A stretch of DNA of 63,486 nucleotides, the filler included, from Collodictyon triciliatum (taxonomy: Eukaryota), in the NCBI GenBank assembly GCA_043381765.1. It is 7 parts of 7 records of this genome, joined end to end, with 100 filler letters (N's around TTAATTAATTAA, not from the genome) between each part and the next. Parts side by side here need not be neighbours in the genome. Positions count along the whole stretch, not along the records: positions 58,660 to 63,486 come from JBHJMP010002190.1; 6 more parts are not named here. One strand, given 5' to 3'. The notes under the pieces are model-generated. The model did not search any database. It was not told where the DNA came from and worked only from the letters and a program-made list of their open reading frames with translations. The translations under genes were made by a program, and so were the position numbers. Below, piece by piece: positions 9,801 to 62,841 of this stretch (positions within the stretch are counted from its first letter, which is position 1; each line of letters begins with the position of its first letter).

Positions 9801-12203
9801 ATATACAAAACTTTTGAAAATTTTTATTGTTCTCGATTAATTCCATATTATGGTACCCTTAGCAACAATAATGATAATGAAAATGATATTAATGAAAAAG
9901 AAAGAATTGAGTTTTTTTTATAAAAAAAAAAAGAGCAGATCTCTATCTTGCACACAATACGTTCAAAACTTATAAAGAATACATTATTAATGGAGGAAAT
10001 GTGTCGGTTTTGTCATTTTAGCTCTCAGCTGCCCTGCACGGTTTCAGGACATTCCTATCACTGTAGAGGAAAAGATTATTCTCGGTGGCGACACAAATCT
10101 GCCTATGAGCCGACGCTCATCTGTGGCAAGTCTATGGAATGAGCCACCTCCCTGTATCGGCTTTGAATCAGACGAAGAGGAAGAGCCAACATTGATGCTG
10201 GGTGCATCACCACTGGACGCCCTTATTTTCGATGACCTGCGACAGTCCTTTGTCCGTGATCGTTCGGGAACAGTCTTAACAGTGGACACCAAATCGACTG
10301 ACCTAAGCTCTGAAGCAGGTAATGCTTCCAAATAAACAAGAAGTTTTTGTGTGGTGAGGGATTTCTCTTCTAATAAATTAGGGATATATGTGAGAATAAA
10401 GGAAAAAAAATTAGGGATATATGTGACTGAACCTGTTTTTTTACACAAGACATACTCATCGTTTAATTACATCTATCTCTATCTCTATCTCTATCTCTAT
10501 CTCTATCTCTATCTCTATCTCTATCTCTATCTCTATCTCTATCTCTATCTCTATCTCTATCTCTATCTCTATCTCTATCTCTATCACTTTTCTATTTTTT
10601 TCTTGACTGAATCACCACAGCTCATGAAAATACCGCCGGTCGTTCTGCAATTGCAGCACAGTCAACCTCAAATATCAATGTGGGAGTGTTTAGATCTTTT
10701 GATGATATATACATTGACTGCAAGTTTAAAGGCGCGACCAACGAATGGGACCAGTTCCATCACAGGTCCATTCTCAACCTGAAACCATAATCACATACAC
10801 ATACATTCGAAATCCCTTTGTGTGAATTTTTCTATCAGTAGAAATATAGAATAAATAAATAAAAAAGGAATCGCTTTGCAGTATGCGAAATATATAGAAA
10901 AATAAATACCTACATGTTATTCAAACTCATAATTGCAACTATTTTTTCAGAGACCAGTCGTCACCCGCGGTGGTGATAGACACCGGGGCAACAACAACGC
11001 GCTTTGGTTACGCCGGCTACGAACACCCGGTCGCAATCTTCCCCACATCGCTCGGCTACGTAGAAGACAGCATTGCTAAGAAGGGGCACACATCTTTGAA
11101 GCAACACGCAGCAGCTCAGATAAAACCTTACTACTTTGATTCGCCATTAGACCCGAAGCGAAGCCCGAATTGGGATGACTTGATTCAAATCTGGCAACAC
11201 GGCTACGACAACCAACTGAACCTTCATGCAGAAGAGCGCGGGGTTTGTTTCTATTCACAGTCTCTTTATACTTGCTTTTATTTTTGTTGTGTTGGTATTT
11301 ACTTGTTTGTTGTTGTTGTTCTTAATCCTTTGACGTTGTTGAATGCTACGCCTCCTCATGTTTCGCCAGGTGCCTTTTTGGAGCGTGGGGCTGACTCATT
11401 GCAAAATTATTACCACCATACCTCCCTCTTCTTTTTTCTTTTTTTTTCTTCCTTTCTTCCTGAAAACTTCAAACTTATTCGCAAAAGGTACTGATGGTAG
11501 AACCTGTGGGAATATCCATGAAGTCGCGTGAGAAACTCCTGGAAATATTCTTCGAAACCTTTCAAGTGCCTTATTATGCTTTGAAGCCACCATCAATCCT
11601 TAGTCTCGTAGCGCTTGGGAATCAATCTGGACTTGTGGTGAACTGGGTACATTGTTTTATATTTTTTTTATGTTTAATTATCAACCAATAGCCGTGGGAT
11701 TAAGTCTCCAACTTGGCATCCACTACCATCGGCGTAATCGAACCTCGTGTAGGGAAGCAAGCTGCAGATAACAGCAATCTCGAACGGCTACATACTCCCG
11801 CACCAGACAGTCGTCCGCAACTTTGGTGGCTTCGACTTGACGGAAATGATGCACACACTCATGAACCGAGAGAGGTCGCTTGAGAGCTACTTTGCAAAGA
11901 GCGACGCCTGCTGGGTCAAAGAAAACCTGTGCTATGTGTGCAATAACTTCCAGCAGGAGATAGAGGCTTCTTCTGGCCAACCCATGAAGCGGGTCACCAA
12001 AACGCCGTACACAAACCAAGAGTTGTCCATCTGCGCCGAGCGCTTCATCTGTCCAGAGGCTTTGCTGGACCCGTCCCTCCTGCGTGTGGATAGTCTCGGG
12101 CTTCACGAGCTTGTCTACGACACCATCACGGGTTGCGACATTGACATTCGTCGCTCGCTTTTCACGAACATTGTGCTGAGTGGCGGGAACACACTCTTCC
12201 CAG
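6826..12203 (+). CDS. Four tandem PH domains fused to a C-terminal divergent actin-fold domain; 3' end cut by the contig end
   Basis: Exons join in phase without stops. PH1 RTGYLQLK..WKKKWVVLQG..EEWLKSL; PH2 RNGYV..RWLDL..LSWVVSL; PH3 EGRLVKQ..WFVLKDG..EAWVNAI; PH4 KQGYLYK..RYRWFVLR..EMNSWLQAL. After a linker comes actin-like VVIDTGATTTRFGYAG, NWDDLIQIW, REKLLEIFFETFQVP, VKENLCYV, ERFICPEAL, CDIDIRRSLFTNIVLSGGNTLFP. Confidence 0.85.
10473..10585 (+). repeat. (CTCTAT)n intronic microsatellite
   Basis: Visible hexamer repeat; it produces the spurious YLYLYL ORF. Confidence 0.95.
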
Positions 12204-12227
12204 GTGAGATTGCCGACGCATGAAACC

Positions 12228-12413: not shown

Positions 12414-12513
12414 NNNNNNNNNNNNNNNNNNNNNNNNNNNNNNNNNNNNNNNNNNNNTTAATTAATTAANNNNNNNNNNNNNNNNNNNNNNNNNNNNNNN
12501 NNNNNNNNNNNNN
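12414..12513. other. Artificial contig linker N44-TTAATTAATTAA-N44
   Basis: Exactly 100 nt with stop codons in all six frames; identical at six places in the window. Confidence 0.97.
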
Positions 12514-46469: not shown

Positions 46470-49400
46470 ATGTCACAGCTGCCGCTACTGGTGGCGATCT
46501 CTGGAGAGGTTCTTTATGAGCGGATTCCACAGGTGACGCTTGAGCAATCGTATGAGGGAACGACGGTCAAAGGAGAGTTGGTTAGTTTGCCTCTCGATTT
46601 GTGTTTGTGTGTTTCCTTACAAGCATTCGACAGGCTTTTTCTTGTGGAGTAAATGTTTGCTTTCTTTCTACTTCTCTATCCTTATATCTATTTTTTCGTT
46701 TTCTTTTCGTTTTTCATTATTTTTTTATTTTTAGGTTTTTACTTCATATCGGATGCTGTTTTATCCATCTCATGTAGTGGAAAACATGATACGCGTCGAC
46801 ACAGATATGGTTTGTTGAGTGGTGATGCGCGAGCAGTCATCTAACTACGGAATAAAAAAGACTGGCTTTTAATCCTATCCTATTTTTCCCTTCCTTTCCA
46901 ACTTCCTTTTCACTCCTTTGGATTGAATAAAGGGAAAAAAATTATGTTAATTCATTCATTCACTTTTCTTTCTTCAAAGGTATTATGTTACAAACCCAAT
47001 CCTGTTGGAAATTCAGGACACACGCTTACTGACTAAAATGTCATGATAATCACATATATAGGACACCCACGGGGTTCATGTGATTCCAATTACATCGATA
47101 GCCAAGATGGAGAAAATCGGAGGTACAAAAGGAGTTACCGTCTGGAGTGGCGGTGTTAACATATCGGTGGACGCCATCAGGCGCATTATGGACCGGTATG
47201 ATGATTCAAATGAGGCCTTTCTTCTCTTCAACTCCTCAACGCGGTCTAGAGCTGTAATTTACATGATGATTTTTATGTGGACAGGGTCCTTATCATCTTT
47301 TGTAAAGACTTCCGAAGATACTACTTTAGTTTTCATCCAAAATCAAAGGTTATTCAATTGATAAGTACCAAAAACTGCGATGCATGTATTTTCTATGTAT
47401 CCATATTTATATTCTCGCAATATTTGACATAATTGTGCCGTGTATATCCCTTACTTATATGTTACTCATTCTGACTGATAATACAATCACTCACTCTATT
47501 CAGAGTCGCTCAAGAGCATACGGCCTCCTTGAAAATGGAATGAAAATATCTACAATATCCGAGCTATTTGCTTTCGCATATGGGAATCAAGCGCCGTCAA
47601 TTCCTTTATCCTTGCAATTCCAATCTTCTACTCAAGTGATTTCTCAGGCAAAGCAGGGATTTATTTCAGCAGGGGCGAAGGTCTCCTCAAATCCAGTTGT
47701 GCCTTCAGGAATCGTTGCCATGCAGCTAGCTAAATTCTCGCAACATCTTAATTCTCCACCACCGCTTCCTTTGCCTTTGGCGACGCACTCTTCAAATACA
47801 TCAAACTTGAACTCCGCAAGTAATGGGCGTTTCGAACCAAATTCTCCAATCATGAAACAGCCGCCTGCAAAAATAAGTCAAGAAAACTTGCCCAAATTCT
47901 CCAATTCGCCCCAACCTCTGGTACAGAAACAGACAAGCGTATCAACAACACAAAAAACAGCCAACGAAATACACGAATCATATTCCTTGCCACTTCCGAG
48001 GCGACCACTCCCCGTAGTCCCGACAGGCATCGAATCTAGTATCACATCAGCTCCAGCATCACCCACATCGGGAAACCAAACATCTTCCGAAAAAGACATG
48101 AAACAAGACTCACAAGAGACATCGCCAGAAATGCCAGTTTCCCCAAGAGGTGCCCAATCAATCACACAAAGGATATTTTCTAATGGTGCACCCCCTCCCC
48201 TTCCTCCCAAACCAGCGTATATATCATCAGGTATACCTGGATACTCCTCAGCTTCTCTAAAGGCGGAATTGTCACCTTTCACATCTGAATCACCACACGA
48301 ACAGGCTGAATCGGACAGTGATACGTTCTCTGTTACCAGTACAAGGTCTAACATCTCTATCCAATCAGCACCCGCCTACATCCGCAAACAGCAAGAAATC
48401 ACTGGCTCTCATGCTCCGAGACAAATAAACACACATGGACCTCCGGTTCCATCAAGAAAGCCTAGTATTACTGGCAGTTCAAATCCCCCACCACTCCCGC
48501 CAAAACCCCAAGGATTATCAGACACGTCCTCAGTGACATCAGGGTGGTCTGCGTCAAGTGGAAAATCTGGCCTTTCCATTCAATCTGCCCCAGCTGTGAC
48601 GATGCAACAGAAGCCATCCATTTGGGCCCAGGCTCCAACCTTAACAGCATCTAGTATCAAAGCAATGAATCAGACCTCCCACACTTCTACCTCATCACAA
48701 GAAAAATCTGTATTCTCCAAGGGCCTAGACAACTTTTTCTCTACTATGAAATCCTCACTACCGAATCCTAACCCCACGAAAGAAATGAGATCGCAAACCA
48801 ATTCACCAGCATCATATTTGGTTAGTCCAAGAAGTGAGCAATCGACACCCTTAGCTTCTTCGTCGTCAGTTTCATCACTGTTGAGCCCAAGAAGTGACCA
48901 GCAGAGGCTCTGGAGGTCTCCGTCTATTGCAAGTAGTTCAGAAACGTCATCTCCGTCTGTTCCCAAAAAGTCTACAACATTTGATGACCATGAAGGCGAA
49001 GCTATTTCAAGACCAATAGGGCGTGGAGCTGTTGGTGGTGTGAAAATATTTGATGTAAAATCTGATACTATGACTCCAAATCACCCAAAGGACGGATGGG
49101 CAGTATATGACACATTCCAAGAATTCAAGAGGCAAGGCGCACTAACGCCCAGAATAGAATCTGAAAGCTGGAGAATCACAGACGTGAATGCTGTTTACCA
49201 ATCGGTCGGGACCTACCCGTCAAAGTTACTAGTGCCTAAGTCATTCGATGACATAAACATTCCAAATGCCGCTCGATTTAGAATCCTCGGGCGCTTTCCT
49301 GTTCTCTCATGGTTTCACTCAGAAAGTCGAGGATTTATCAGCCGATGTAGCGAGCCAGCGGACTATCCATACCACCGAGAATGCTATGAGAATACGATGC

Positions 49401-51508
49401 TGTTTGATTCTATGAAAAAGGTACAACTGCTCTTAAATGTTGGCGTGGATATTATCCATCTCCCTTCAGAGAACCCAATATCATCAAATAATAGCACACA
49501 TTATTGCTGTATTTATTCTGAACTGTGAATTCCTTCAACAACAGACCTTAAAACAGAGTGGTCGACTAATTATAGTAGAGGAGCGTTCTGTCAACCAACT
49601 AACACCGACTGCACAATTGCATAATATCCGAGTAACTGCGCCTCATGTTCCACCAGGCATTCTCTCAGAAGTATCAGGATTCGAGCCATTGGAACTAAGG
49701 GGGGAGAGTTTGATGAAATTAGAGGAAATGGTTATTTTTCCATATGCTTTTCTTTCTCGTAGCCCAAATATTATTGATGTTTTATTATAACGAATGAAAT
49801 TGTCTCACTTTATGAAAATTACCATACCTTTCATTTTCAAAGAATAAATAAATTAATTAGATGTACGCCCAAGCTGACGAAGATGAGGTCAGTTGGCTTA
49901 TCAAATGGGAAGATACGAGTAAGTATTTATCTGTTGTTTCAGATTGAATTCTTCAATTTTTCAATTACTGTTTTATTTTAAAAAGAAACTACTATGGCCC
50001 ACTGAAAAAAATAAAAACTCCATAACCACGTTTCTATTCATATATTTGATTTAGAGTGGCCCATACATATTAAGACACTTTTAGCATGCGCCACCCGAGT
50101 TGCTCGCCTTGTCGATGTATTTATATCTCATTTCAATAAAAAATTTTTTCATATTATTATTTCAATATCATATTATGCTATTTTTATTCATTGAACCGAA
50201 AAAAAAAAGTGTCATATTAATATACCAACAATAGGAAGGGAACGGAGTTATACTATCTTGCTACAGAGGCTATGACACGTCCACAATAGTACTATTACTT
50301 TTTAGCAACCATAGTTTCTTTTTCCTTCTGAATTCAGGCTTACTCATCGGAACTTTTAGGCTTCGATGTTATCTCAGCTGCTTTTAGATCCATACTTCAG
50401 AACGTATACTGGGTTTCAAGTACCAATCATATATTTGAAAGCATAACACCACTGCTCCTTTTTTTGTCGCACATGTATTAGCTAGAATAAAGTCTGTATT
50501 TTTCAAGAATATATACCATGTAACCTAAATACCATAAACTTCCCGATAAATAATAAACAAATAAATAGTATCAACACCTCCAGCAGTTTTTTTTTTTAAA
50601 AAAGAAATAAGAACTAATTATCTTTCTATGAAGGTTCTAGTAGAGAAGGAGTGGGTCTCTATGGGTTATCCTTTCGGGGTGCTCATAGCAAACTCTTTAT
50701 CAGACACCTTGTAAGTTGATCCCTGCAATTTTTATGAAGCATTCTACTATATTGATTACATTTTTGTAACCTTTGATACTTTTACCTAGAAACCCTCCTC
50801 CACCTTATGTGGGGGCTTCATTTATTCAATTAATGGACGCCATATTTCAGGTTGGAATACATATGTTGGATTTATCCCTTCGTCTAAACCTTACACTAGC
50901 CTTACCACTCTTTTGCGTGAAATTCGGATTCTTTTTTGAATGACCACCTCACTAGGACGATGTTTTTATTTCATTTTCTGATTATAATCCTGTTAATAGA
51001 TTCAAGAACAATATCCATTGTCTTTTGAATTCAACGAGCATCTGTTAGTCGACCTTCTTGAGCAATTGTTTTCGTGTCGATTTGGAACATTTCTGGCCAG
51101 CAACGAACGAGACCAAGAATTTCTGCAACTCAAGGCGAAGACAACATCCATGTGGACACATTTTAATGACCCTTGCCGCAGAAGCAAGTATATCAATAAA
51201 GATTATAGGCCTTTCTTTGGAACCTTACAGGTAGCGTACGCCATCCTCATATATAATCTCACTCATCGTAGCCTACAATTGGCTAATATGTTTGCTATTT
51301 AACGTTAACTAATCACTCTTTATGTACTTTTTTTTTTTTTTTTAATAAGGTGATAACAAAAAACATCCGACATTCAAGAGCTTACCTCTTAATTCACTTG
51401 ATATAGCCTTCTCATAACCTGCGAAAGATTCGCCTATGGAAAAATTTCTACATGAGAAACTGGGCTTTGTTGAAGCAGCAGACGCAAAGTAATCTCAAGT
51501 CCAAGTGA
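46470..51508 (+). CDS. Myotubularin-related protein (PH-GRAM + PTP-like domain), predicted catalytically inactive, with a ~500-aa Ser/Pro-rich insert
   Basis: GRAM: ISGE..GEL|VFTSYRMLF..IPITSIAKMEK..IFCKDFR..LFAFAY. Phosphatase domain: DGWAVYD..EFKRQG, WRITDVN..TYPSKLLVP, RFPVLSW, SRCSEP, LLLDPYFRT..GFQ|VLVEKEW, FEFNE..LL..FGTFL, IRLWKNFY. Stop TGA at 51506-51508. Confidence 0.9.
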
Positions 51509-52929: not shown

Positions 52930-55900
52930 ATGCAGCCACAGTTCGTGCGACCAGTGCAGCTGACTCCTTGCTGGGTGTTTTTCCTTGATCTCTTGTTCAC
53001 TTGGATTCTGTTTTTTATTTGCGTGGAAAACGACCTGGATGGTGAAAACTGGGACAATCAAATCGAAGACTACGATGGGACGATTAGTCTGTTTGATGTC
53101 GGCGTAAGTCTATGTTGATGGCTGCCTGCCTTTCTTTTTCTTTTTCCTTTTCTTTCTCCTTTTCTTTCTGATTTCGTTTTTGTTTTTGTTACCTCATCTA
53201 AAGCTTATCTAAATACACTCATTTGATGCGGCTGTAGGATGTCTTATCATGAATACACCCAAACCTAGTTTATTATGCAGCGAATAATTCATTTAACTTT
53301 TTATTAGCTGTTATCGACACTTCGAACTAGTTTCTTGACCTATGCTCTATTAAAAGTGAGGCGAGGTCGCAGCAACATTATTGCGGTTATTTTCTTTACA
53401 ATATTATTTTTCTTTACTTATCGCACCCGTGTCGTAGATTACATTCATCGAAAGTACTTGAATTTTTCATTCATATTCGCATGCTCTTTATTCCTTTTGT
53501 ATTTCATCTCAAATTATTTTCATGTACTCGTTCAGATTGTCTGCGTGATGTTTCAATTGCTCATGATTGCAAAGAGCATACTTTATGACTATGATAATGT
53601 CACACTCTCGGCTATTGTCCTATTGATATATGTGCAGCTGATTGGTGTCGTCGAATTCTTTTCTGTTGTTTTGCCTCCAGGGTCAACGCGTCCTTTTGCC
53701 GTAAACTCTGTGTGCATTAATTTATAATCTCCCTACTAATTTAACAGACATCGCACACATGATATATATTCTCTTCATCTAATGTATCAGTGAATGCGTT
53801 CTTTTTTCCCTTTAAAATCTACCATTCCGCCAATTTGCACCCAAATATTCCATTATTTTATCATTCCCTTTGTTCATATATTAGTTGATATTTAATTGTT
53901 CATACTTCTATCGGCATAAAGCAGAGATGTATTTATCTTTTTATTTATTTATTTATTATTATTATTATTTAAAAGGACCCAACCGAAGAATCACGCCCAT
54001 TGCTATTGGACCCTGAAGCTGGCCCAAGAAATTCTTCGTATCGCAGGTTGTTTTATACGCAGAAAAGGAATTTAATTTTCACCTTGCAACACTCATTACA
54101 ATATGAATCATTTCTAAATAATATCTTGATGATTTTTCTATTAACCCTATTAAATTCTCTCTTTTTTTTCAAATCTTTCTAACACCGTAATTGTCTTGAA
54201 ATAGCACGGAAAAGAATTCTGGACGCTTAATACGGCCTACAAGAAACGAGTATACGGATATTATAGAGAAAACATATCGCCGCCTCAAAGAGGCTGCAAA
54301 GAACGATAAATCTTGGGAAGAAATGGAGCCGAATGATAATATTAAAATTTACAAACGACAAGACGGCCCTCTTACCAGCTCAAAAGTTTTACTTTGTTCT
54401 AAATTTTATATTCTTGTAAAATTCCTTATGAACTATTTCCTCTTCTTGTTTCTCGATAATATACATATATCACAATGAGAGCAATCCTTTAGGGTGTCGG
54501 AATCATTCCCATTTCACCAAAACATGCCTCGTTGCTCGTTCGGAATTTGGATGCTCGGAAGAAATGGGATGAAATGTTCCAAGATGGAGACGAAATCGAG
54601 TGTGTTGATAGGTAATTTTTTCTTTTACTTTTCTATATTTCCTTTTTCTTCTTCTTCTCTTCTTTCTATCTCCATTCCGATTCCGATTCCGGTTCCGGTT
54701 CCGGTTCCGATTCCAATTCCAATTCCGATTCCGATTCCTACTATATATGACGTATGGTATACCGTCGCCTGCAACACCATATATTGACGCTTTATTTTTT
54801 TAATTATCTTTATCTACTTAATTAATATGAAATTATATGGTCGCTATAGATTAACACGCATCCTGCATTTGCGATTTAAATCGGTCTGGCCCACGAAAGC
54901 TCGCGACATGTCCCTGGTTGAAAGTGTAAAAGAAGAGGAAGATGGAACTTTTGTTGTCCTTTCTTCATCGATTAGACATCCACAGGTTTAAATAAAAGAA
55001 TTTAATTATAATTGTATAAATCCGAACTAAAAACTTACGATGGTGTGCTCTTATGCGTAAGTTATGATGTATCATTCGTCTGTAACAGGTACCAGAAAAT
55101 CAAACATTTGTTCGAGGCGATTTGCAATGTGGAGGTTGGATACTCTCTCCTGTTGCTGGGAAACCAAACGCCACGAAAGCAACCTATGTAGTTCAGGTTA
55201 GTTTTCTTTTCGATAGTCAATATTCACATAATATTTGCCGACTTACATCGCACTCAAAACCTTCACTATATCCATATCATATCATCTTATCTTCCTCGAT
55301 GTTTCCAAAAGTATACTATGTTTTACAAAATAGGTGGACCCTTGTGGTAGTATTCCATTGTTTGTTATAAACATGATGGCTACGAAGCAGCCTATGTGTA
55401 TTGCAGCCGTCAGGCGTTGTATCGAGAAAGAACCCCATATTGTAAACGCTTTAGAAGAGGAGAGTGCCGAGGCTGAAGTAAGTCTAGAAATGGCAATTCT
55501 AACACCTACGTTTTTTTTTCTGCTTGCTTTTCGTTAATATGAGAATGAAATATTCACCACAGTCTGGTGTTCAGCCCTCAAACCAAGCTGGGCCGTCCAG
55601 GAAACTTCCCAAAGGTATTGAAACGAAAAACTTGTGATTTTACTCGTGAATTATTTTCGAAAATGAGGGATTATATATCTCAAATCAGGGAGACTAACTT
55701 GCGGTATTAAATTTAGGTGAGTTCAGTCGGTTGCCTGATGAATTTGCCAATGTAAAGAGTAGACCGCGATTTGGTGAGACTTCAAGGACATCGTTTACTC
55801 GCTTGTATGACGCTGCCATGGTAACTTTTTTCCAAAAAAGTTGTAAAATTTCTGAAGAATGAGCCCAATCAATGCCAAATCATCAAAAATTTAACAAACC

Positions 55901-58375
55901 CATGCATTTTTTTTTTTTTTTGTATAAGAAACAACAACAAACCACCATCCTGCACAAAATTGAAAGGAAGAATAAAAAAAAAAATTTCTAGGGCTCTACA
56001 GCAGAAGGGTGGCAACCAGTCGGTGATATTGACGGAGTTAAGATTTCGAAGCAATACTCATCTGTTACTGGAGTGGCATCCTTTAAGGGTGAATAGATTA
56101 AACTCTTTGTTCTCAATAATTTAACTTCCTTTTTTTCCTTCCTCTTCTCGTAATGTCTTATCCAGATAATATCGATGACATTTGATTGCCACAAATATTT
56201 AAAAATAAACCACACATTTTAGGTGTTGGTGTGATTCAAGCCAGCCCCAAGGATGTCTATGACATGGTTACCAATCTAGGACGACGAAGGGATTGGGACC
56301 ATATGTACAAAGGTTTATTCGCATTAATTCACAAATATTTTAACTTCGCCAATTTACATATTGTAATAAATACACATAATTCAAATTGACATTTTGTCTC
56401 TTCTTATAAACTAACATTTCGATCGATATGACGAGCAGAGGGCGCTGTTGTAGAGACTCTAAATGCCAACAATCGAATTGTTTACTTGTCATTTTATGCT
56501 CAAGTGATGACATGGCCTCGAGATTTTTGTTTGCTTGAAAGCCGTCGCGTAAATCTGGACGTATGTACCTTTTCCTTTCAGAATTTCCTTTATTTTTAGC
56601 CTGGTGACTAGATATGAAGTACATAAGTGGCATTCCCTACAGTTTTCTTTAGGCATTGCCCAACCATTCATCCCAATCGCCTGAAATATTAATAGAATGT
56701 ATTTCATAGACAAATTCGTATCACATCGCACTTATTTCCACACAACATCCATCTGTACCTGAATTCAGCGGATTTGTAAGAGGCGAGACTCTATTCGGTG
56801 GATATATCATCGAGCCATTTGCAAATACAAACTACACCAGAATCATTTACTGTGCCAGCATTCACCCGAAAGGATGGATACCCCTTAGCGTTGTTAACTC
56901 TGTCTCTACGAAGCAGCCATTGGTGGGATAATTTCCTCAGATTAATTCACATTTCTCTCTTCTTCCCCAAAACATATTACCTAAAATAAGTGAAAAATAT
57001 GCGCTCTTTTCTTTTTTCTTTCTTTTCTTTTTTTTTTAAAAAAAAAGTTTTTATATATTTTCCGTTTAGGTTATCGCCTCACTTCGAGACCTTTTGGCGG
57101 TCGAGCATCCTATTTCCCCACGTACAGTTCCGGTACAAAATGGTTTGTTACTGAAATCATATTTGATTAATTGTATTGACCATCGTCAATTCATGACCTG
57201 CTTTCATGCCAAATAAATGAGTTATTCGCTTGGTTCTTTTTTTTTCTTCCATTAATTAAATCTTTCATCGGTACCTTTTCTTCTTTTTCTTTTTCTTCCA
57301 GCTGTCCTAAGTGACTCTCCACAAAACGAAGCAAACATAGCTGGTCCATCTGGATCAACTATGCAAACATCAAGTGGTGCTATCGAAATGATTGCGAATG
57401 TTGACGATACTGGTTCTACTGAACAAGGCCCGAATAGTAATATTGCGGTATATATTGAAAAAATTCAAGGGGTTGTTATCAGATTAAAAACTGAGAGCAA
57501 TGGGGGCGAGGATGAAGGTTGGGTGTTCCATTCTCGTCAACAAGATGTGGATATCAGGTTAGTACGGCGGGCACGATTAGCTCTAGATATTTTCTATTAT
57601 ATTCATGTGGATATTAAATAGCTGATTTTCTAATGATCAAATTTTCGTGCGGAATTATTAAATGCATTATTCTTTTAATCCAACTAGTATGAAACGAATT
57701 GGAGACCAGACAGCAACTCGAGGAGTCACTGTATTTGATTATCCAATCAATGTTGTGCATTGGTACCTCTCCCAATCTGATAGGTCTGCAATACTCGCAT
57801 CCGAGTACTTTTTTCCCTCCTTCAAATATGTTTACCTACAGCATTATTATTTCTGAAATCATGACCCTTCGGGGTCATCTGAAAAAATTATTTCTGAAAT
57901 CATTTTCAAAATCATGTAGACGTGTCGATTGGGATTCCATGTTTTTGTCATCAGCTCATATCGAGCAAGTTATCCCCACTGCATCGATATCCCATTACAA
58001 ATTTAAGGTTTTTCTATTCGCATTTAACTTTTCGTAATCTGAAAGGCCTACTGAAAATTTCTACTTGTCCTTCGGTTTTTGACTTATTGCCATTTTGCCT
58101 CTGAGCTTTTCACTTTTTCTCTTTAATAAATAAATGTTATGTCATTTTTCTTACGATTGTTTGATTTGCTTGATAGGCAATCTTTCCGACAAGTCCACGT
58201 GATTTCTGTAGTATTGCATGTCGAGTTGTCGAGCCAGATGGAACTCATATACTTGCATCCACAGCGGTTGAACATGCATCTGTCCCTCCTGACCCGGGTT
58301 TCATTCGTGGCGAATTGGTGACTTCAGGCTTTCTCTTGAAAGCCATCTCTTCATCGCAGACCCAAGTGACATATA
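52930..58375 (+). CDS. MENTAL-like 4-TM domain followed by three tandem START lipid-transfer domains (STARD3/MLN64-like); 3' truncated
   Basis: MENTAL-like: FFLDLLFTWILF..QIEDYDGTISLFDVG|LLSTLRT..LLMIAKSIL..VVEFFSVVLP. START1: RKKWDEMF..VWPTKARDM..SIRHPQVP..FVRG..VDPCGSIPLFVIN. START2: RRDWDHM..WPRDFC..HPSVP..FVRG..PKGWIPLSVVN. START3: RVDWDSMF..FPTSPRDFC..VEHASVP..FIRG. Confidence 0.88.
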
Positions 58376-58395
58376 GTATGGCCATGAATTACTGC

Positions 58396-58659: not shown

Positions 58660-59098
58660 TGTATAGATGCTTCATATGTAAAGAATGCAATCGGCCAGAA
58701 AGCAAATAAGCTGTATTCTTGACAAGAGACTTTAACAGCGCTAAAAAAAAAAAAGCTCAACATGGTTCTTTTTATCCTTCATAATATGCATACACCTTCC
58801 TCTAAAAAATAGGATGTCGTGCCTTTCCCGACAGCCTTCACCACTAGACGGCCATAGTGAAAAAAAGTGATGAGACCTTGGATACTAGTAGACCAGGTTA
58901 ACCAGTATTTCGATTAGTATACCCCTTCTAGTATCGGGATATAGTTAGGAGAAAAAAGGACCGTTGCAGCGCCTGAGCGAATTGAAACACAGTCTGCAAT
59001 AAACCGCCTCTAAAAAATTGTGATTCAAACGTAGTACCAGCGCGAGAAAAGTTTTCTGTTCAGTGTTTATCCGAGCGCAGGGTCGAGAGAAGCGTCGA

Positions 59099-59757
59099 TT
59101 ATTCTTTGACAAGGTGCTTGTTAAGCAGCTGCTGCAGACTTGTGAGAGACAGCTGGGGCACACCAAAAACGCCTTGAAGGTTGGAATCACAATTGATAGC
59201 ACGACCTTGGTTGAGTTTGTTGGCTTTGGCGTAATCCCAGCTATGGCCGCATAATGATTATTAGTGATTCGTAGACATGCATACCATTCATACAGACCAT
59301 GTATTAGTGCAGATGTTTATTAATGATGAGGGTTCATGTGCGATGGACTCTAATGCAATATGACAAAAGAAGTCGAATAATGCGAATCCAGCGATAATAT
59401 ATTATGATTCAGAGAATCCAACTGCCTCGATATGGAATACAGTGGAAGAAGTGAAGCAAGGGTACTCACATGACTTTGGTTATCTCGTGGCGTGTTCCTT
59501 GCTCCTTCTGGACAAACTTGCTCAGCTCAGGAGAGAGCCTATAATTAGTCAGCAGTCGTTTGGCACGGGCCTATATGGGTAAGACAGAAATGAGCAGAAA
59601 GTGGTGAGTGTTGGCTTGGATAGTCAATGGTGCTTCTCAATATGATCGAATGGAGGAAGGGGAGGCATTGGCTCCAAACCAACTTAAAATGGGGCCTTAG
59701 ATATACGAGGAAGACGAAAAGTAAAATGAAGTTATTCCTCACGGCATTGACGCTCAT
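59099..59757 (-). CDS. Small stand-alone SWIB/MDM2-domain protein (85 aa, 3 exons), not in the ORF track
   Basis: Exons 59757-59743, 59570-59470 and 59240-59099 (GT-AG, 258 nt) give MSVNAARAKRLLTNYRLSPELSKFVQKEQGTRHEITKVIWDYAKANKLNQGRAINCDSNLQGVFGVPQLSLTSLQQLLNKHLVKE*. This matches the SWIB pattern LSPEL..R.E+.K.+WDY.K.N.L..I.CD..L..+FG..L+.KHL. Confidence 0.85.
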
Positions 59758-60751
59758 GGTGTCTTTTCCAGGGGGTGTGGTGTACTTTCTTCTCTTTGCA
59801 TGACGAGAAGGAAGAAAATAGCAATGTGAAAAGAAAGAAAACATTCTTGGGTAGCTTCATGTTTGATCAAGGGTCTTGCTCTAGGCACCAAGAAAGCAGT
59901 AAAAAAAATTTCATACTCCCTTCTACCCATGTGCATATCGCGCTTGCGTCTTGTTTGCGTATAGTTTACAATTATAACCCGAGAACATTTTCGAAAATCA
60001 ACCAACCAATATTAACTGTGCGAAAAAGGACACGAATCCTCATTAGAGGCTCGATTTTAGGTTGTGGGAAATGAAAGCTCTGGGTCGTTGCGGCAAAGTC
60101 CTCCAAAGTGGTGCTCCTGGCGCGCAGGGGATTTGCGACGCTGCGTTTGTTGCCCCGCACTGATTCATCTGCCTCGTCCACCAGCAATGGTGAATTCCGC
60201 CACCGATTAAATTGCAGTTATACATTTCTGGAAAAATTAATAAATTTATTATTAGACCATAGTCGGTTCATCAAATGGACTTTCTGTGCATATATTAAAC
60301 ATAATATCATAAATTATCATATAACACTAGTAAACAAAGGCGAATAATGAATTGTGGCCGTTTCTCCCATGCCGCAGCCTGTGGCCACTTGCTAATCCGA
60401 AACGTAATTGGATTCGATGAGGAATTAGAGTGTGGGTATTATGTCAACAACCCATTACAAAATACAAAGGCTCATAAATACCCTGGCAGCAAACCGTCGG
60501 GTACCAAGCAGCTGTTTCTTTGATCAAAAATGAGTGATCGAAGGCCTTTTCCACGCAGCCCTGCCAATGAGAACCTTACAGAACGGCAGGAAGCCAAGTG
60601 TCGATACAAATATGAAACAAAGAGGAAGCAAGCATCAATTCCAATGGTGAAGGATGAAAGAAAAAAATAAGAGGAGTGAGCCGCTAACCTTTATTCCTTC
60701 CGCACAAAGCAAACCAAAGCAAACCAAACACATAATTCTACAGCTGCTCAT

Positions 60752-62841
60752 ATGGAGTCCCCGTCTGGCCCCTTTTTTATGTCTGAGTTTGCCTCGTCGC
60801 TGGAGTTCTTCTCGAGTGCGCCTACAAAGTCAACCATCACAACATTCACGAACGCGCCCGAAGCCGAGAGGTATACATTCTGCCACCTCCAGAGTGCGAG
60901 CCAGTACGCAGCTTTTGGGGTTGATCAGCGCCTGGCCTCTCAAACAGAAGAGGCTGAAAGCGCATATGTAGCCTCCTTCTTGAAGGACGAGGCTTTGAGC
61001 CTTTCCGATCAGCCACCTGTTGTTGGAGCCGCAGGAACCACACCAAACAAGCAACAGATCGTCGATCTTGCCGAGGACGATTCGGAGGGGCTCTGCAGCA
61101 CGCACGAATCAAACTCCTCAGGCACCACACTCACAAAAGCTGAGTTGTCTGGAGCTCAGTCGTGCAAGTTGTTTCCTCATGCCTCACCATTTACTTGGGT
61201 GCCGTCAAACTCAAGTCTAGGGGGTTCCTCCTCTGCGCTTTCCCCTTCTGTGATCAAGGTTAATTGCGTTGCAGATCTGAGTATCGAAGTTCAACCCCCG
61301 AGTGAGATACGTACAAAGACGCCAAGGGAAGTTAGGTTTGTTTTGTACGGGGATATGAAACCTACACATGAATAGAAATACATGCACAAAAAATACCTGT
61401 ATGATTTTCCAGAGCACGTGTATTTTAGCATAATTAAGATAAAGAGGAAAATAACCTACAGGACTAGGGAACGAATATATATGAGTTTTCTGTCGGATAC
61501 ATAGTTTATTCAACCCACCCTATTTTTACAGACTCGAATTTTCAGAAACTTGACAAAGGTTAAAAACCTTCAATAGAAACTTCACAGTGGTGGTCAATGC
61601 TTCTGGTCGCCCAGCTTCGGCCTACACACCCATGCTTGTGAGAGCTGAGCTTTACTATGCAGCTCCCGATGCTCATACTCAGCCATTGCCGGTTCCTGGT
61701 GGAGACCGCATTTTGGGTGGCACTACTATTGTTAATGTGCAATCAAACGGTTAGGCCCGACTCACCCCTGTCGCACATATGAAGCTAATCTTTTTATGAA
61801 ATATATGTAATGAAACACTGTGAAATCCAGTGATATTGTCTGCAAATGCTGCAATGCGTATATGAAGTTCGTAAAATTTTCTTATTCTCAAATGCTTTTT
61901 GTTGATTTCAGGATCAGCAGTTTTTAACAATCTAAGTGTCTCCGAAGCATCTACAAAGCATGAGGAGAGAGACTTTTGTATCGGCCTCACTCTGATTGGT
62001 GGAGAACCGATGCAAATTCTAAGCAGGAAATTCACAACGTCTTTTTACACATACTCACACAGAAAGGTCCTCGAGAAAAGAAGTGAGCTTTGATTCGCTG
62101 CACCAAATGTTTTCTTTCCTTCTTTTTTTTTTTNNNNNNNNNNNNNNNNNNNNNNNNNNNNNNNNNNNNNNNNNNNNNNNNNNNNNNNNNNNNNNNNNNN
62201 NNNNNNNNNNNNNNNNNNNNNNNNNNNNNNNNNNNNNNNNNNNNNNNNNNNNNNNNNNNNNNNNNNNNNNNNNNNNNNNNNNNNNNNNNNNNNNTCCTTC
62301 CTTCCTTCCTTCCTTCCTTCCTTCCTTCGGGATACCAGGAAACATAACACTGAAAGCCCTCAGCTGTGCTAATGGATCTACCGAGGGCAGCACTGCTATG
62401 CATGTCATCGGTAGTCCATTTGTGAAAGGTCCCTTCTTTAGTGTCATCTTTATGACTGGGTATGGATCGGTGCGAGTTTCTGCTGTGGACTTGTACTCGG
62501 ATTGTGTAGCTTTCTTTCAATTACCACCGTGCCCTGGTGGCCCTTATCCCCCAGGAACTGAAGTGCCTGCCCTAGTTTGCGTCACAAATGACGGGAAGAA
62601 TTTCTCGGAGCCGCTAGAGTTTGTTTATGTGGCTCGAGGAGGTTTCTTTTCATCTTCTTTTTCTGAAGAAATCCTTGAAAGATTAATTCGAACAAAAACA
62701 AAACAAAACAGAACTGTCACCAGACACCCGGTCGACTTTTTTTTTTACAAGAAAACGTATTAACGGGAAAACTAACAACGTGTAATTACCACTCTAGAAC
62801 CCTCCTCCAAAAAACGTGGTGCTCACTACTCTAGAATGTAG
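60752..62841 (+). CDS. Putative Rel-homology-like (Ig-fold DNA-binding + IPT/TIG) transcription factor, 5 exons
   Basis: Ser/acidic N-terminus; LSIEVQPPSEIRTK..; RILGGTTIVNVQSN|GSAVFNNLSVSEASTKHEERDFCIGLTL; IPT domain ITLKALSCANGSTEGSTAMHVIGSPF..VIF..FFQLPP..VCVTNDGKNFSEPLEFVY; tail EPSSKKRGAHYSRM* (TAG 62839-62841). All junctions are in phase. Confidence 0.7.
62134..62294. other. Plain scaffold gap (161 N, no linker) inside an intron
   Basis: Flanking exons join in frame (KVLEKR|RNITL). Confidence 0.9.

Follow-up and report, generated by a model that had tools for sequence, protein, structure and literature searches.

Rel/NF-kB and NFAT proteins (1p7h, 8u9l, 1imh) carry an immunoglobulin (Ig)-fold DNA-binding domain (DBD) joined directly to an IPT domain. 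Rel is confined to opisthokonts in a survey that retrieved its candidates via the Pfam profile PF00554 and placed the origin of Rel at the opisthokont base (PMC8763368), and the Rel recognition loop has the consensus RFRYXCEG (PMC2751831). Fungal velvet proteins are without the helical insert of the Rel N-terminal domain (Rel-N) and have a C-terminal helix, VosA binds DNA through its loop A, and velvet dimerizes via the sheet of the DBD, the solved domain having no IPT (PMC3876986); common descent of NF-kB and velvet has been doubted (PMC10845976). Here, we report a gene of the protist Collodictyon triciliatum, at 60752-62841 on the plus strand of a 63,486-nucleotide stretch (the window) joined from parts of seven records of assembly GCA_043381765.1. 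Its 424-amino-acid (aa) product belongs to a family in which, as modeled on close relatives, a compact velvet-like β-sandwich is joined directly to an IPT of the Rel/NFAT type. In our reading, to which we assign a probability of about 0.7, the protein binds DNA sequence-specifically as a transcription factor, and its family stands as a separate one in the p53/Rel/velvet/STAT superfamily of Ig folds.

The gene has five exons with a 1275-nt open frame, and all four introns have GT..AG borders; splicing at these borders gives the 424-aa frame with exactly the start and end that the first-pass annotation, made from the DNA alone, had assigned. All motifs quoted in that annotation are found in the spliced protein, i.e., LSIEVQP (aa 176-182), EIRTKTPRE (185-193), ILGG (240-243), AVFNNLSV (255-262), FSEPLEFVY (398-406), and KKR (415-417), which were compared there with motifs of NF-kB, NFAT, and RelA. 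RNA contigs link exons 3-4-5: intron 4 (156 nt, GT..AG) is spliced out in contigs from three of four sequencing runs (X1, X2, and X4), and in the X1 and X2 contigs the end of exon 3 stands directly before exon 4, i.e., intron 3 is removed. Please note that X1 and X2 come from one study, the RNA nature of which is only guessed and which is possibly the genome's own source, that X4, from a second study, is a short contig with 44 letters on its short side, and that the X3 contig is restricted to exon 4; four of the seven listed runs were compared. Introns 1 and 2 are supported by homology, through matching breaks in three paralogues and a gap-free alignment to the Diphylleia protein P0002 (134/229 aa identical). 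The N-terminal 175 residues, described earlier as rich in Ser and acidic residues, are indeed Ser-rich (31 Ser) and only mildly acidic (20 Asp/Glu, 8 Lys/Arg), and judging by sequence they are probably a disordered activation region.

The gene is not a chance open frame, because exon 3 matches 10 loci in the Collodictyon genome itself and a DBD-core profile finds 102 representatives at E≤0.001 among the 1.84 billion of the library. Exon 3 carries the conserved motifs EAS-x-x-H-x-x-R-x-F and FY-x-YSH-x-x-VL-x-RR, and a matching IPT is present in 57 of the 102 representatives. The nearest relatives are from Diphylleia rotans and Rigifila ramosa (CRuMs), in agreement with the proposal of a non-animal protist as host; in a quick 62-row tree, made without bootstrap and relied on only for the CRuMs group and for the spread of C-terminal tails, the 424-aa protein and four CRuMs rows form one group with a support of 100, and the host thus probably belongs to CRuMs. 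Other named members are from Acytostelium, Polysphondylium, Tieghemostelium, Heterostelium, Ceratiomyxa, Vannella, Clydonella, Stenamoeba, and Cochliopodium, all Amoebozoa, and from Colponema, an alveolate. No relative found is longer than 914 aa. Dictyostelium discoideum is absent from the names returned, which is weak evidence only, and there is no opisthokont name among the 30 clusters looked up, many of which are nameless. One relative with a fungal taxon id was left unplaced, its record being from a marine microbial transcriptome set; P0082, a repeat protein, was discarded as noise, and P0120 appears to be joined to a galactosidase by an error of the gene model.

Among the 10 paralogous loci, four show an IPT within the stretches fetched, four have an SPX domain upstream, and two show the DBD alone. 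The SPX-type paralogues (C3506, C3552, C2977, and C902) combine SPX with the same DBD and, in at least three, with RING, no IPT being seen; Diphylleia P0106 has the same build. Paralogue C1285, DBD only, is GC-rich and divergent in an otherwise AT-rich genome. P0097, P0074, and 16 more relatives have, in place of the IPT, an RWP-RK domain fused to a more distant DBD with a different first loop (18 of the 72 relatives scanned, the most distant ones), e.g., in Balamuthia, giving two DNA-binding domains per protein.

Two relatives stand in for the Collodictyon protein in the predicted structures, P0002 with DBD and IPT (59% identical to the 424-aa protein) and a Rigifila protein with the DBD alone. 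The P0002 model, with a predicted local distance difference test (pLDDT) value of 95.2 and a predicted template-modeling (pTM) score of 0.88, places the DBD and then the IPT as two abutting Ig-like domains with no domain inserted between, which is the order found in Rel. The first 27 rows shown by Foldseek for this model are all Rel/NFAT chains (best E 1.6e-10), followed by EBF1 at 1.5e-8. In VIA, the model matches a c-Rel chimera at Z 14.5 (216 residues aligned, root-mean-square deviation (rmsd) 7.2 Å) and the RelA IPT at Z 14.5 (96 aligned, rmsd 1.6 Å), with RelB/p52 IPT at 14.0 and NFAT1 IPT at 13.3, then plexin at 11.9, EBF3 at 11.8, and CAMTA1 at 11.7. Viral structures gave generic Ig matches only, with template-modeling (TM) scores ≤0.35.

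For the Rigifila DBD model (pLDDT 96.1), VosA (4n6r) is the best match in VIA (Z 14.5, rmsd 2.0 Å, 121 aligned), ahead of p52 and VeA (9i2s; both 11.8), p65 (10.9), TonEBP (10.4), STAT (9.8), CSL (8.7), p53 (8.4), and EBF (7.9), and VosA also comes first in Foldseek (TM 0.69) with STATs next. The family DBD is about 40 residues shorter than Rel-N, residues 5-131 of the model covering p65 19-186, and the family models share both velvet traits, i.e., no Rel-N insert and a C-terminal helix, within a compact seven-strand sandwich with a basic loop A. As modeled, the DBD is structurally nearer to fungal velvet than to Rel and the IPT is nearest to Rel/NFAT. The region before the IPT is thus a p53/RHD-type β-sandwich in the relatives' models, and together with the KKR behind the IPT these models bear out the Ig-fold DBD, IPT, and basic tail that had been read from the DNA.

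At the level of sequence profiles, RHD_DNA_bind (PF00554) has no match in the four exons searched and none in 59 whole relatives at E≤1; Velvet (PF11754) matches none of the 59 members and none of 13 DBD pieces, the identity to velvet being 16-20%; Spt23/Mga2 (PF25603) matches none of the 59, its sole weak match in the genome lying on another contig; and CSL (LAG1-DNAbind plus β-trefoil) and EBF (COE1_DBD plus HLH) are likewise not found in the 59 members. Calmodulin_bind (PF07887) of plant CBP60 is weak in 3/59 (best E 0.084; 11.7 bits for part of P0002 against a cut-off of 25.5). The protein ends 16 residues past the IPT with at most five Gly per 20 residues, leaving no room for ankyrin repeats or a membrane anchor, unlike p105/p100, which have ankyrin repeats and a glycine-rich region. 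By Pfam and by loop consensus, then, the family is not Rel, since PF00554 does not match it, RHD_dimer (PF16179) stays below its cut-off, and RFRYXCEG is not kept, in line with the first-pass annotation, which had not called it a bona fide Rel protein; nor do the Pfam profiles assign it to velvet, CBP60, Spt23/Mga2, CSL, or EBF. PF00554 is the profile by which the survey cited above retrieved its candidates. A family profile run against PDB sequences gave 20 matches at E≤10, all 20 being Rel/NFAT IPTs (best NFAT5, 3.9e-4), and language-model features rank a Rel cluster first (0.88, 180/256), which we take as a lead only. Single exons gave nothing useful in Pfam, PDB sequences, or a word-index search. 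A search of the Collodictyon genome itself with PF00554, PF11754, PF07887, and PF16179 gave no match, and as the controls were silent too, no absence is shown. RecA matches of the DBD-core profile were rejected, because their scores add up single matches of 3.6-4.2 bits across tandem fusion constructs.

In Rel, Arg and Glu residues of the recognition loop read bases. The corresponding family loop, between strands 1 and 2 and at the place of the DNA-binding loop A of VosA, reads Q-P-P-x-E-V-R-T-R-T-P-x-E-x-R-x-F, and in the 57 ungapped of 59 rows the conserved positions are R (56), R (51), E (46, with D in 10), R (55), and F (57); the RTRT loop is found in eight of the 10 paralogous loci, and the Collodictyon protein itself has R-T-K-T-P-R-E-V-R with Lys in place of the second Arg. 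Set against RFRYXCEG, where NFAT has Thr at position 6, RTKTPREV here and RTRTPxEx in the family fit at positions 1, 3, and 7 and not at 2, 4, 6, and 8, in a register inferred from the spacing of the motif and from the residues at which the structural alignments begin. The Rel spacing R-x-(R/K)-x-x-x-E is kept; Tyr, Cys, and Gly are not. The earlier statement that the Rel loop is not conserved thus stands as far as the consensus goes and fails as far as the spacing goes, the loop being kept as R-T-R-T-P-x-E-x-R. No other surface of the family is as conserved as this loop, which resembles a modified form of the Rel device, and DNA specificity is likely different from that of Rel. Paralogue C1290 and Diphylleia P0005 have an altered loop (RTTTKY vs RTASKS), and their IPT is split by an additional intron; going by sequence, this pair may bind other DNA.

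It seems very improbable that the protein is not a transcription factor at all and serves as a two-Ig-domain adaptor or as a peroxisomal matrix protein. Ig folds are widespread, with 769 chains matching the Rigifila DBD at Z≥5, and the C terminus resembles a type 1 peroxisomal targeting signal (PTS1); against this, the top 10 structural matches of the DBD are all transcription factors, an Arg-rich loop in the position of the DNA-reading loop is the most conserved surface, and relatives fuse the same domain to RWP-RK.

Whether the family shares its origin with Rel is a different question from its function, and the same is true of the C-terminal tag discussed below; our estimates for the three are not meant to sum to one. 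A true sisterhood of the family with Rel is, in our view, unlikely. Under this proposal, DBD and IPT would descend together from the two-domain ancestor of NF-kB/NFAT, an ancestry not shared by EBF, Spt23/Mga2, CAMTA, and CSL, and velvet would be a derivative without IPT. The proposal draws on the IPT, which is closer to Rel/NFAT than to EBF/CAMTA by about 2-3 Z units, on the family profile, which matches Rel/NFAT alone in the PDB, on the R-x-R-x-x-x-E spacing and the basic cluster behind the IPT, and on the host group CRuMs, which is sister to Amorphea. However, RHD_DNA_bind matches none of the 59 members, the DBD is nearer to velvet and lacks the Rel insert, Tyr, Cys, and Gly of RFRYXCEG are absent, the identity to Rel (13-17%) is too low for a sequence tree, and members also occur in an alveolate. 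If this proposal were true, the Rel homology region would have arisen before the opisthokonts.

The DBD could also belong to a branch with DG1062_N, CBP60, and CSL that gained its IPT independently, the likeness to NF-kB being a repeated assembly from common parts; this, too, we consider improbable. Atlas features of a paralogue DBD point that way (DG1062_N 0.92 and 0.90, LAG1-DNAbind 0.84, Calmodulin_bind 0.77, with a sub-threshold recognition score), as do LAG1-DNAbind at E 0.0065 in one distant relative and the six of 10 paralogous loci without a visible IPT in the stretch fetched. DG1062_N (PF28397) is on record for 3/45 relatives, which is likeness and limit at once: the domain is not wholly unrecorded, but only a few members are touched. 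Moreover, CBP60 is far below the cut-off, and CSL reaches Z 8.7 vs 14.5 for VosA. The structural-match rows listed for the Rigifila DBD include no CBP60 chain, which speaks neither for nor against CBP60; no paper on DG1062 turned up in our literature search. The earlier designation "Rel-like/CBP60-like" is accordingly modified, the DBD being nearer to velvet than to Rel and CBP60 remaining a weak hint. The view of a deeper family relevant to NF-kB/NFAT origins is supported, and the first-pass interpretation as a whole is partly supported.

The same domain order, with the IPT as dimer domain, is found in Mga2/Spt23, EBF/COE, and CAMTA, and the known build of EBF and Mga2 limits the surprise of this family. 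EBF and CAMTA score lower than Rel/NFAT (EBF DBD Z 7.9, IPTs 11.7-11.8), the Mga2 DBD is closest to p53 (10.64898/2026.08.31.748402), whereas p53 reaches only Z 8.4 with the family DBD, and the family has no ankyrin, membrane segment, zinc knuckle, or HLH match.

The protein ends in KKR-G-A-H-Y-S-R-M-stop, encoded by a separate exon, and paralogue C1080 likewise ends in KKR...SRM. SRM before the stop is among the 48 validated plant PTS1 tripeptides (PMC3427985, Table A1). An end of the form (S/A/C)(K/R/H)(L/M/I/F/Y) is found in 32 of 52 whole-IPT representatives, P0001, a false IPT call and noise, being kept in the 52, vs none of the other 50. A validated plant tripeptide forms the end in 30 of the 52 (SRM 11, SRI 8, SRF 6, SKM 2, ARM 1, SRL 1, FKL 1), or in 24/42 under a stricter filter, against a background of 177 in 16,642 internal tripeptides (1.06%). 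These ends are scattered across the family tree, and in nine representatives the tag is retained after tails of 25-165 aa, indicating that the free end matters. Collodictyon has peroxisomes, given the Pex2/12-type genes in its genome and acyl-CoA oxidases (six ends read from seven loci) that end in SRL, SRL, PKL, AKL, SAL, and GSA, four of the six being validated PTS1. As the single most likely reading of the tag we take a weak PTS1, and we give it somewhat less than an even chance of being functional. The KKR, noted earlier at the place of the NF-kB nuclear localization signal (NLS), is possibly an NLS, but the module of which it is part has a PTS1-like SRM end that had been overlooked; K[KR]x[KR] occurs in 14 of the 32 tagged tails. 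Four Diphylleia isoforms (P0002, P0103-P0105) differ at their C-terminal ends, none of them tagged, and splicing may switch the tail there.

C-terminal 14-3-3 sites, PDZ ligands, and C-terminal NLSs are signal classes that need a free end. The tripeptide could be one of these, i.e., a phospho-Ser site whose binding by 14-3-3 masks the NLS, or else a PDZ ligand or an element of a C-terminal NLS, in a protein that shuttles between cytosol and nucleus only; we give this a little under an even chance. The context of the tag fits it, with Arg at -4 in 46/53 ends and at -2 in 51/53, with Met/Phe/Ile preferred over Leu, which is narrower than PTS1 needs, with KK or KR just upstream in 21/32, and with no SKL. 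On the other hand, Ala replaces Ser in 4/28 ends and Thr never does, which by the usual rules fits PTS1 and not a phospho-site or a class I PDZ ligand, and the distance from the basic cluster to the protein end varies.

Keeping to the reading as a transcription factor, we propose the following working model. With the loop that joins strands 1 and 2, the factor would read the DNA major groove, as NF-kB and VosA do with theirs, at a site that would not be a kB site, because the Tyr and Cys of Rel are absent; through the IPT, the four IPT-bearing paralogues would pair with themselves or with one another, and the Ser-rich N terminus would activate transcription. As there are no ankyrin repeats and no membrane anchor, the switch would most likely be the C-terminal module, i.e., the basic cluster plus the terminal (S/A)-(R/K)-(M/I/F). 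With a weak PTS1, Pex5 and importin could compete over adjacent signals, and the factor would be kept from the nucleus, or drawn into peroxisomes, until import slackens. Taken as a whole, the proposal of a pre-opisthokont sister of NF-kB/NFAT with an ancestral velvet-like DBD and a Rel-type IPT, free of IkB and held by Pex5 through a PTS1 beside its NLS so that it is nuclear only when peroxisomal import falls, is quite unlikely. Mga2 is similarly held at an organelle until needed (10.64898/2026.08.31.748402), and a peroxisomal role for HIF-1 has only been suggested (PMC9549241, PMC12316961). As a working model only, we point to the sequestration of HIF-1 and to ATFS-1 of C. elegans, in which a signal for an organelle accompanies the nuclear role of a transcription factor; their folds are unrelated, and the putative tag here is conserved across supergroups. 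The organelle signal of ATFS-1 is reportedly mitochondrial.

Several points weigh against these interpretations. For the fold, both models are of relatives' proteins; the two-domain rmsd to DNA-bound Rel is 7-9 Å, so the angle between the domains is unlike that in DNA-bound Rel; EBF and Mga2/Spt23 are also built of DBD and IPT; and likeness of fold is possibly convergent (PMC10845976). RHD_dimer is weak in 7/59 members, all below the cut-off (best 23.6 bits vs 28.3), with no match for exon 4 alone; a second alignment gave two PDB matches only (E 0.045 and 0.4), and a DBD-only profile matched no PDB sequence. For the tail, SKL is never found among the family ends and Leu is last in only two of the 30, unlike the organism's own acyl-CoA oxidases, which end in Leu; the tag is missing in 22 of 52 representatives, including the closest relative P0002 and its isoforms, and SRM ends only two of the four paralogues that have an IPT. 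Owing to the kinship of the rows, 30 of 52 is not an independent count, and the list of validated tripeptides is from plants. In a fungus, a transcription factor whose end resembles a PTS1 was observed nowhere but in the nucleus (PMC12316961).

Coordinates of the gene, its parts, and other features are collected in Table 1. Six 100-base spacers (N44, 12 letters, N44) at 12414, 24919, 37431, 45980, 52564, and 58560 make the window a chain of separate pieces, and genes before 58660 are therefore not shown to be neighbors of the gene.

Table 1. Features of the DBD-IPT gene and of the remainder of the window
Feature	Position	Strand	Description	Basis
Whole gene	60752..62841	+	5 exons, 424 aa	Splicing and RNA joints
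Exon 1	60752..61335	+	Ser-rich N-terminal region (aa 1-175), first strand, recognition loop	
Recognition loop core RTKTPRE (aa 187-193)	61310..61330	+	Between strands 1 and 2	Models
Exon 2	61577..61749	+	Middle of Ig-fold DNA-binding domain, contains ILGG	
Exon 3	61912..62082	+	End of DNA-binding domain including C-terminal helix	
Intron 3	62083..62338	+	N run at 62134-62294	Removed in RNA contigs
Exon 4	62339..62641	+	Rel/NFAT-type IPT (aa 311 to about 408)	
Exon 5	62798..62841	+	Putative C-terminal location module	
KKR basic cluster (aa 415-417)	62809..62817	+	NLS-like (predicted)	Sequence
Terminal SRM and stop	62830..62841	+	PTS1-like tripeptide	Sequence
Actin-related gene	10898-12223	+	Gene for a divergent actin-related protein	
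Phosphatase gene	47330-49528	+	Myotubularin-like phosphatase behind a long Ser/Pro-rich stretch	
START gene	55086-58380	+	Multi-exon gene, at least 2 START domain pieces	
Short open frames	58945-60217	-	Upstream of the gene; may be a small divergently transcribed gene	One weak RING-like match, E 0.0047

We found no published description of the family or its tail in a literature search from which subscription papers were excluded. With its velvet-like DBD and Rel-type IPT, the family, present in CRuMs, Amoebozoa, and an alveolate, offers a concrete candidate for a link between NF-kB and velvet, and members in culturable dictyostelids make the NF-kB/velvet question testable. Sensors of peroxisomal failure have been called undefined (10.64898/2026.09.19.752713), and the PTS1-like end offers a direct way to ask whether a transcription factor reports peroxisomal import. 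If both the sisterhood with NF-kB/NFAT and the control by Pex5 were true, the family would do for peroxisomes what ATFS-1 does for mitochondria, and this role would be shared by several supergroups.

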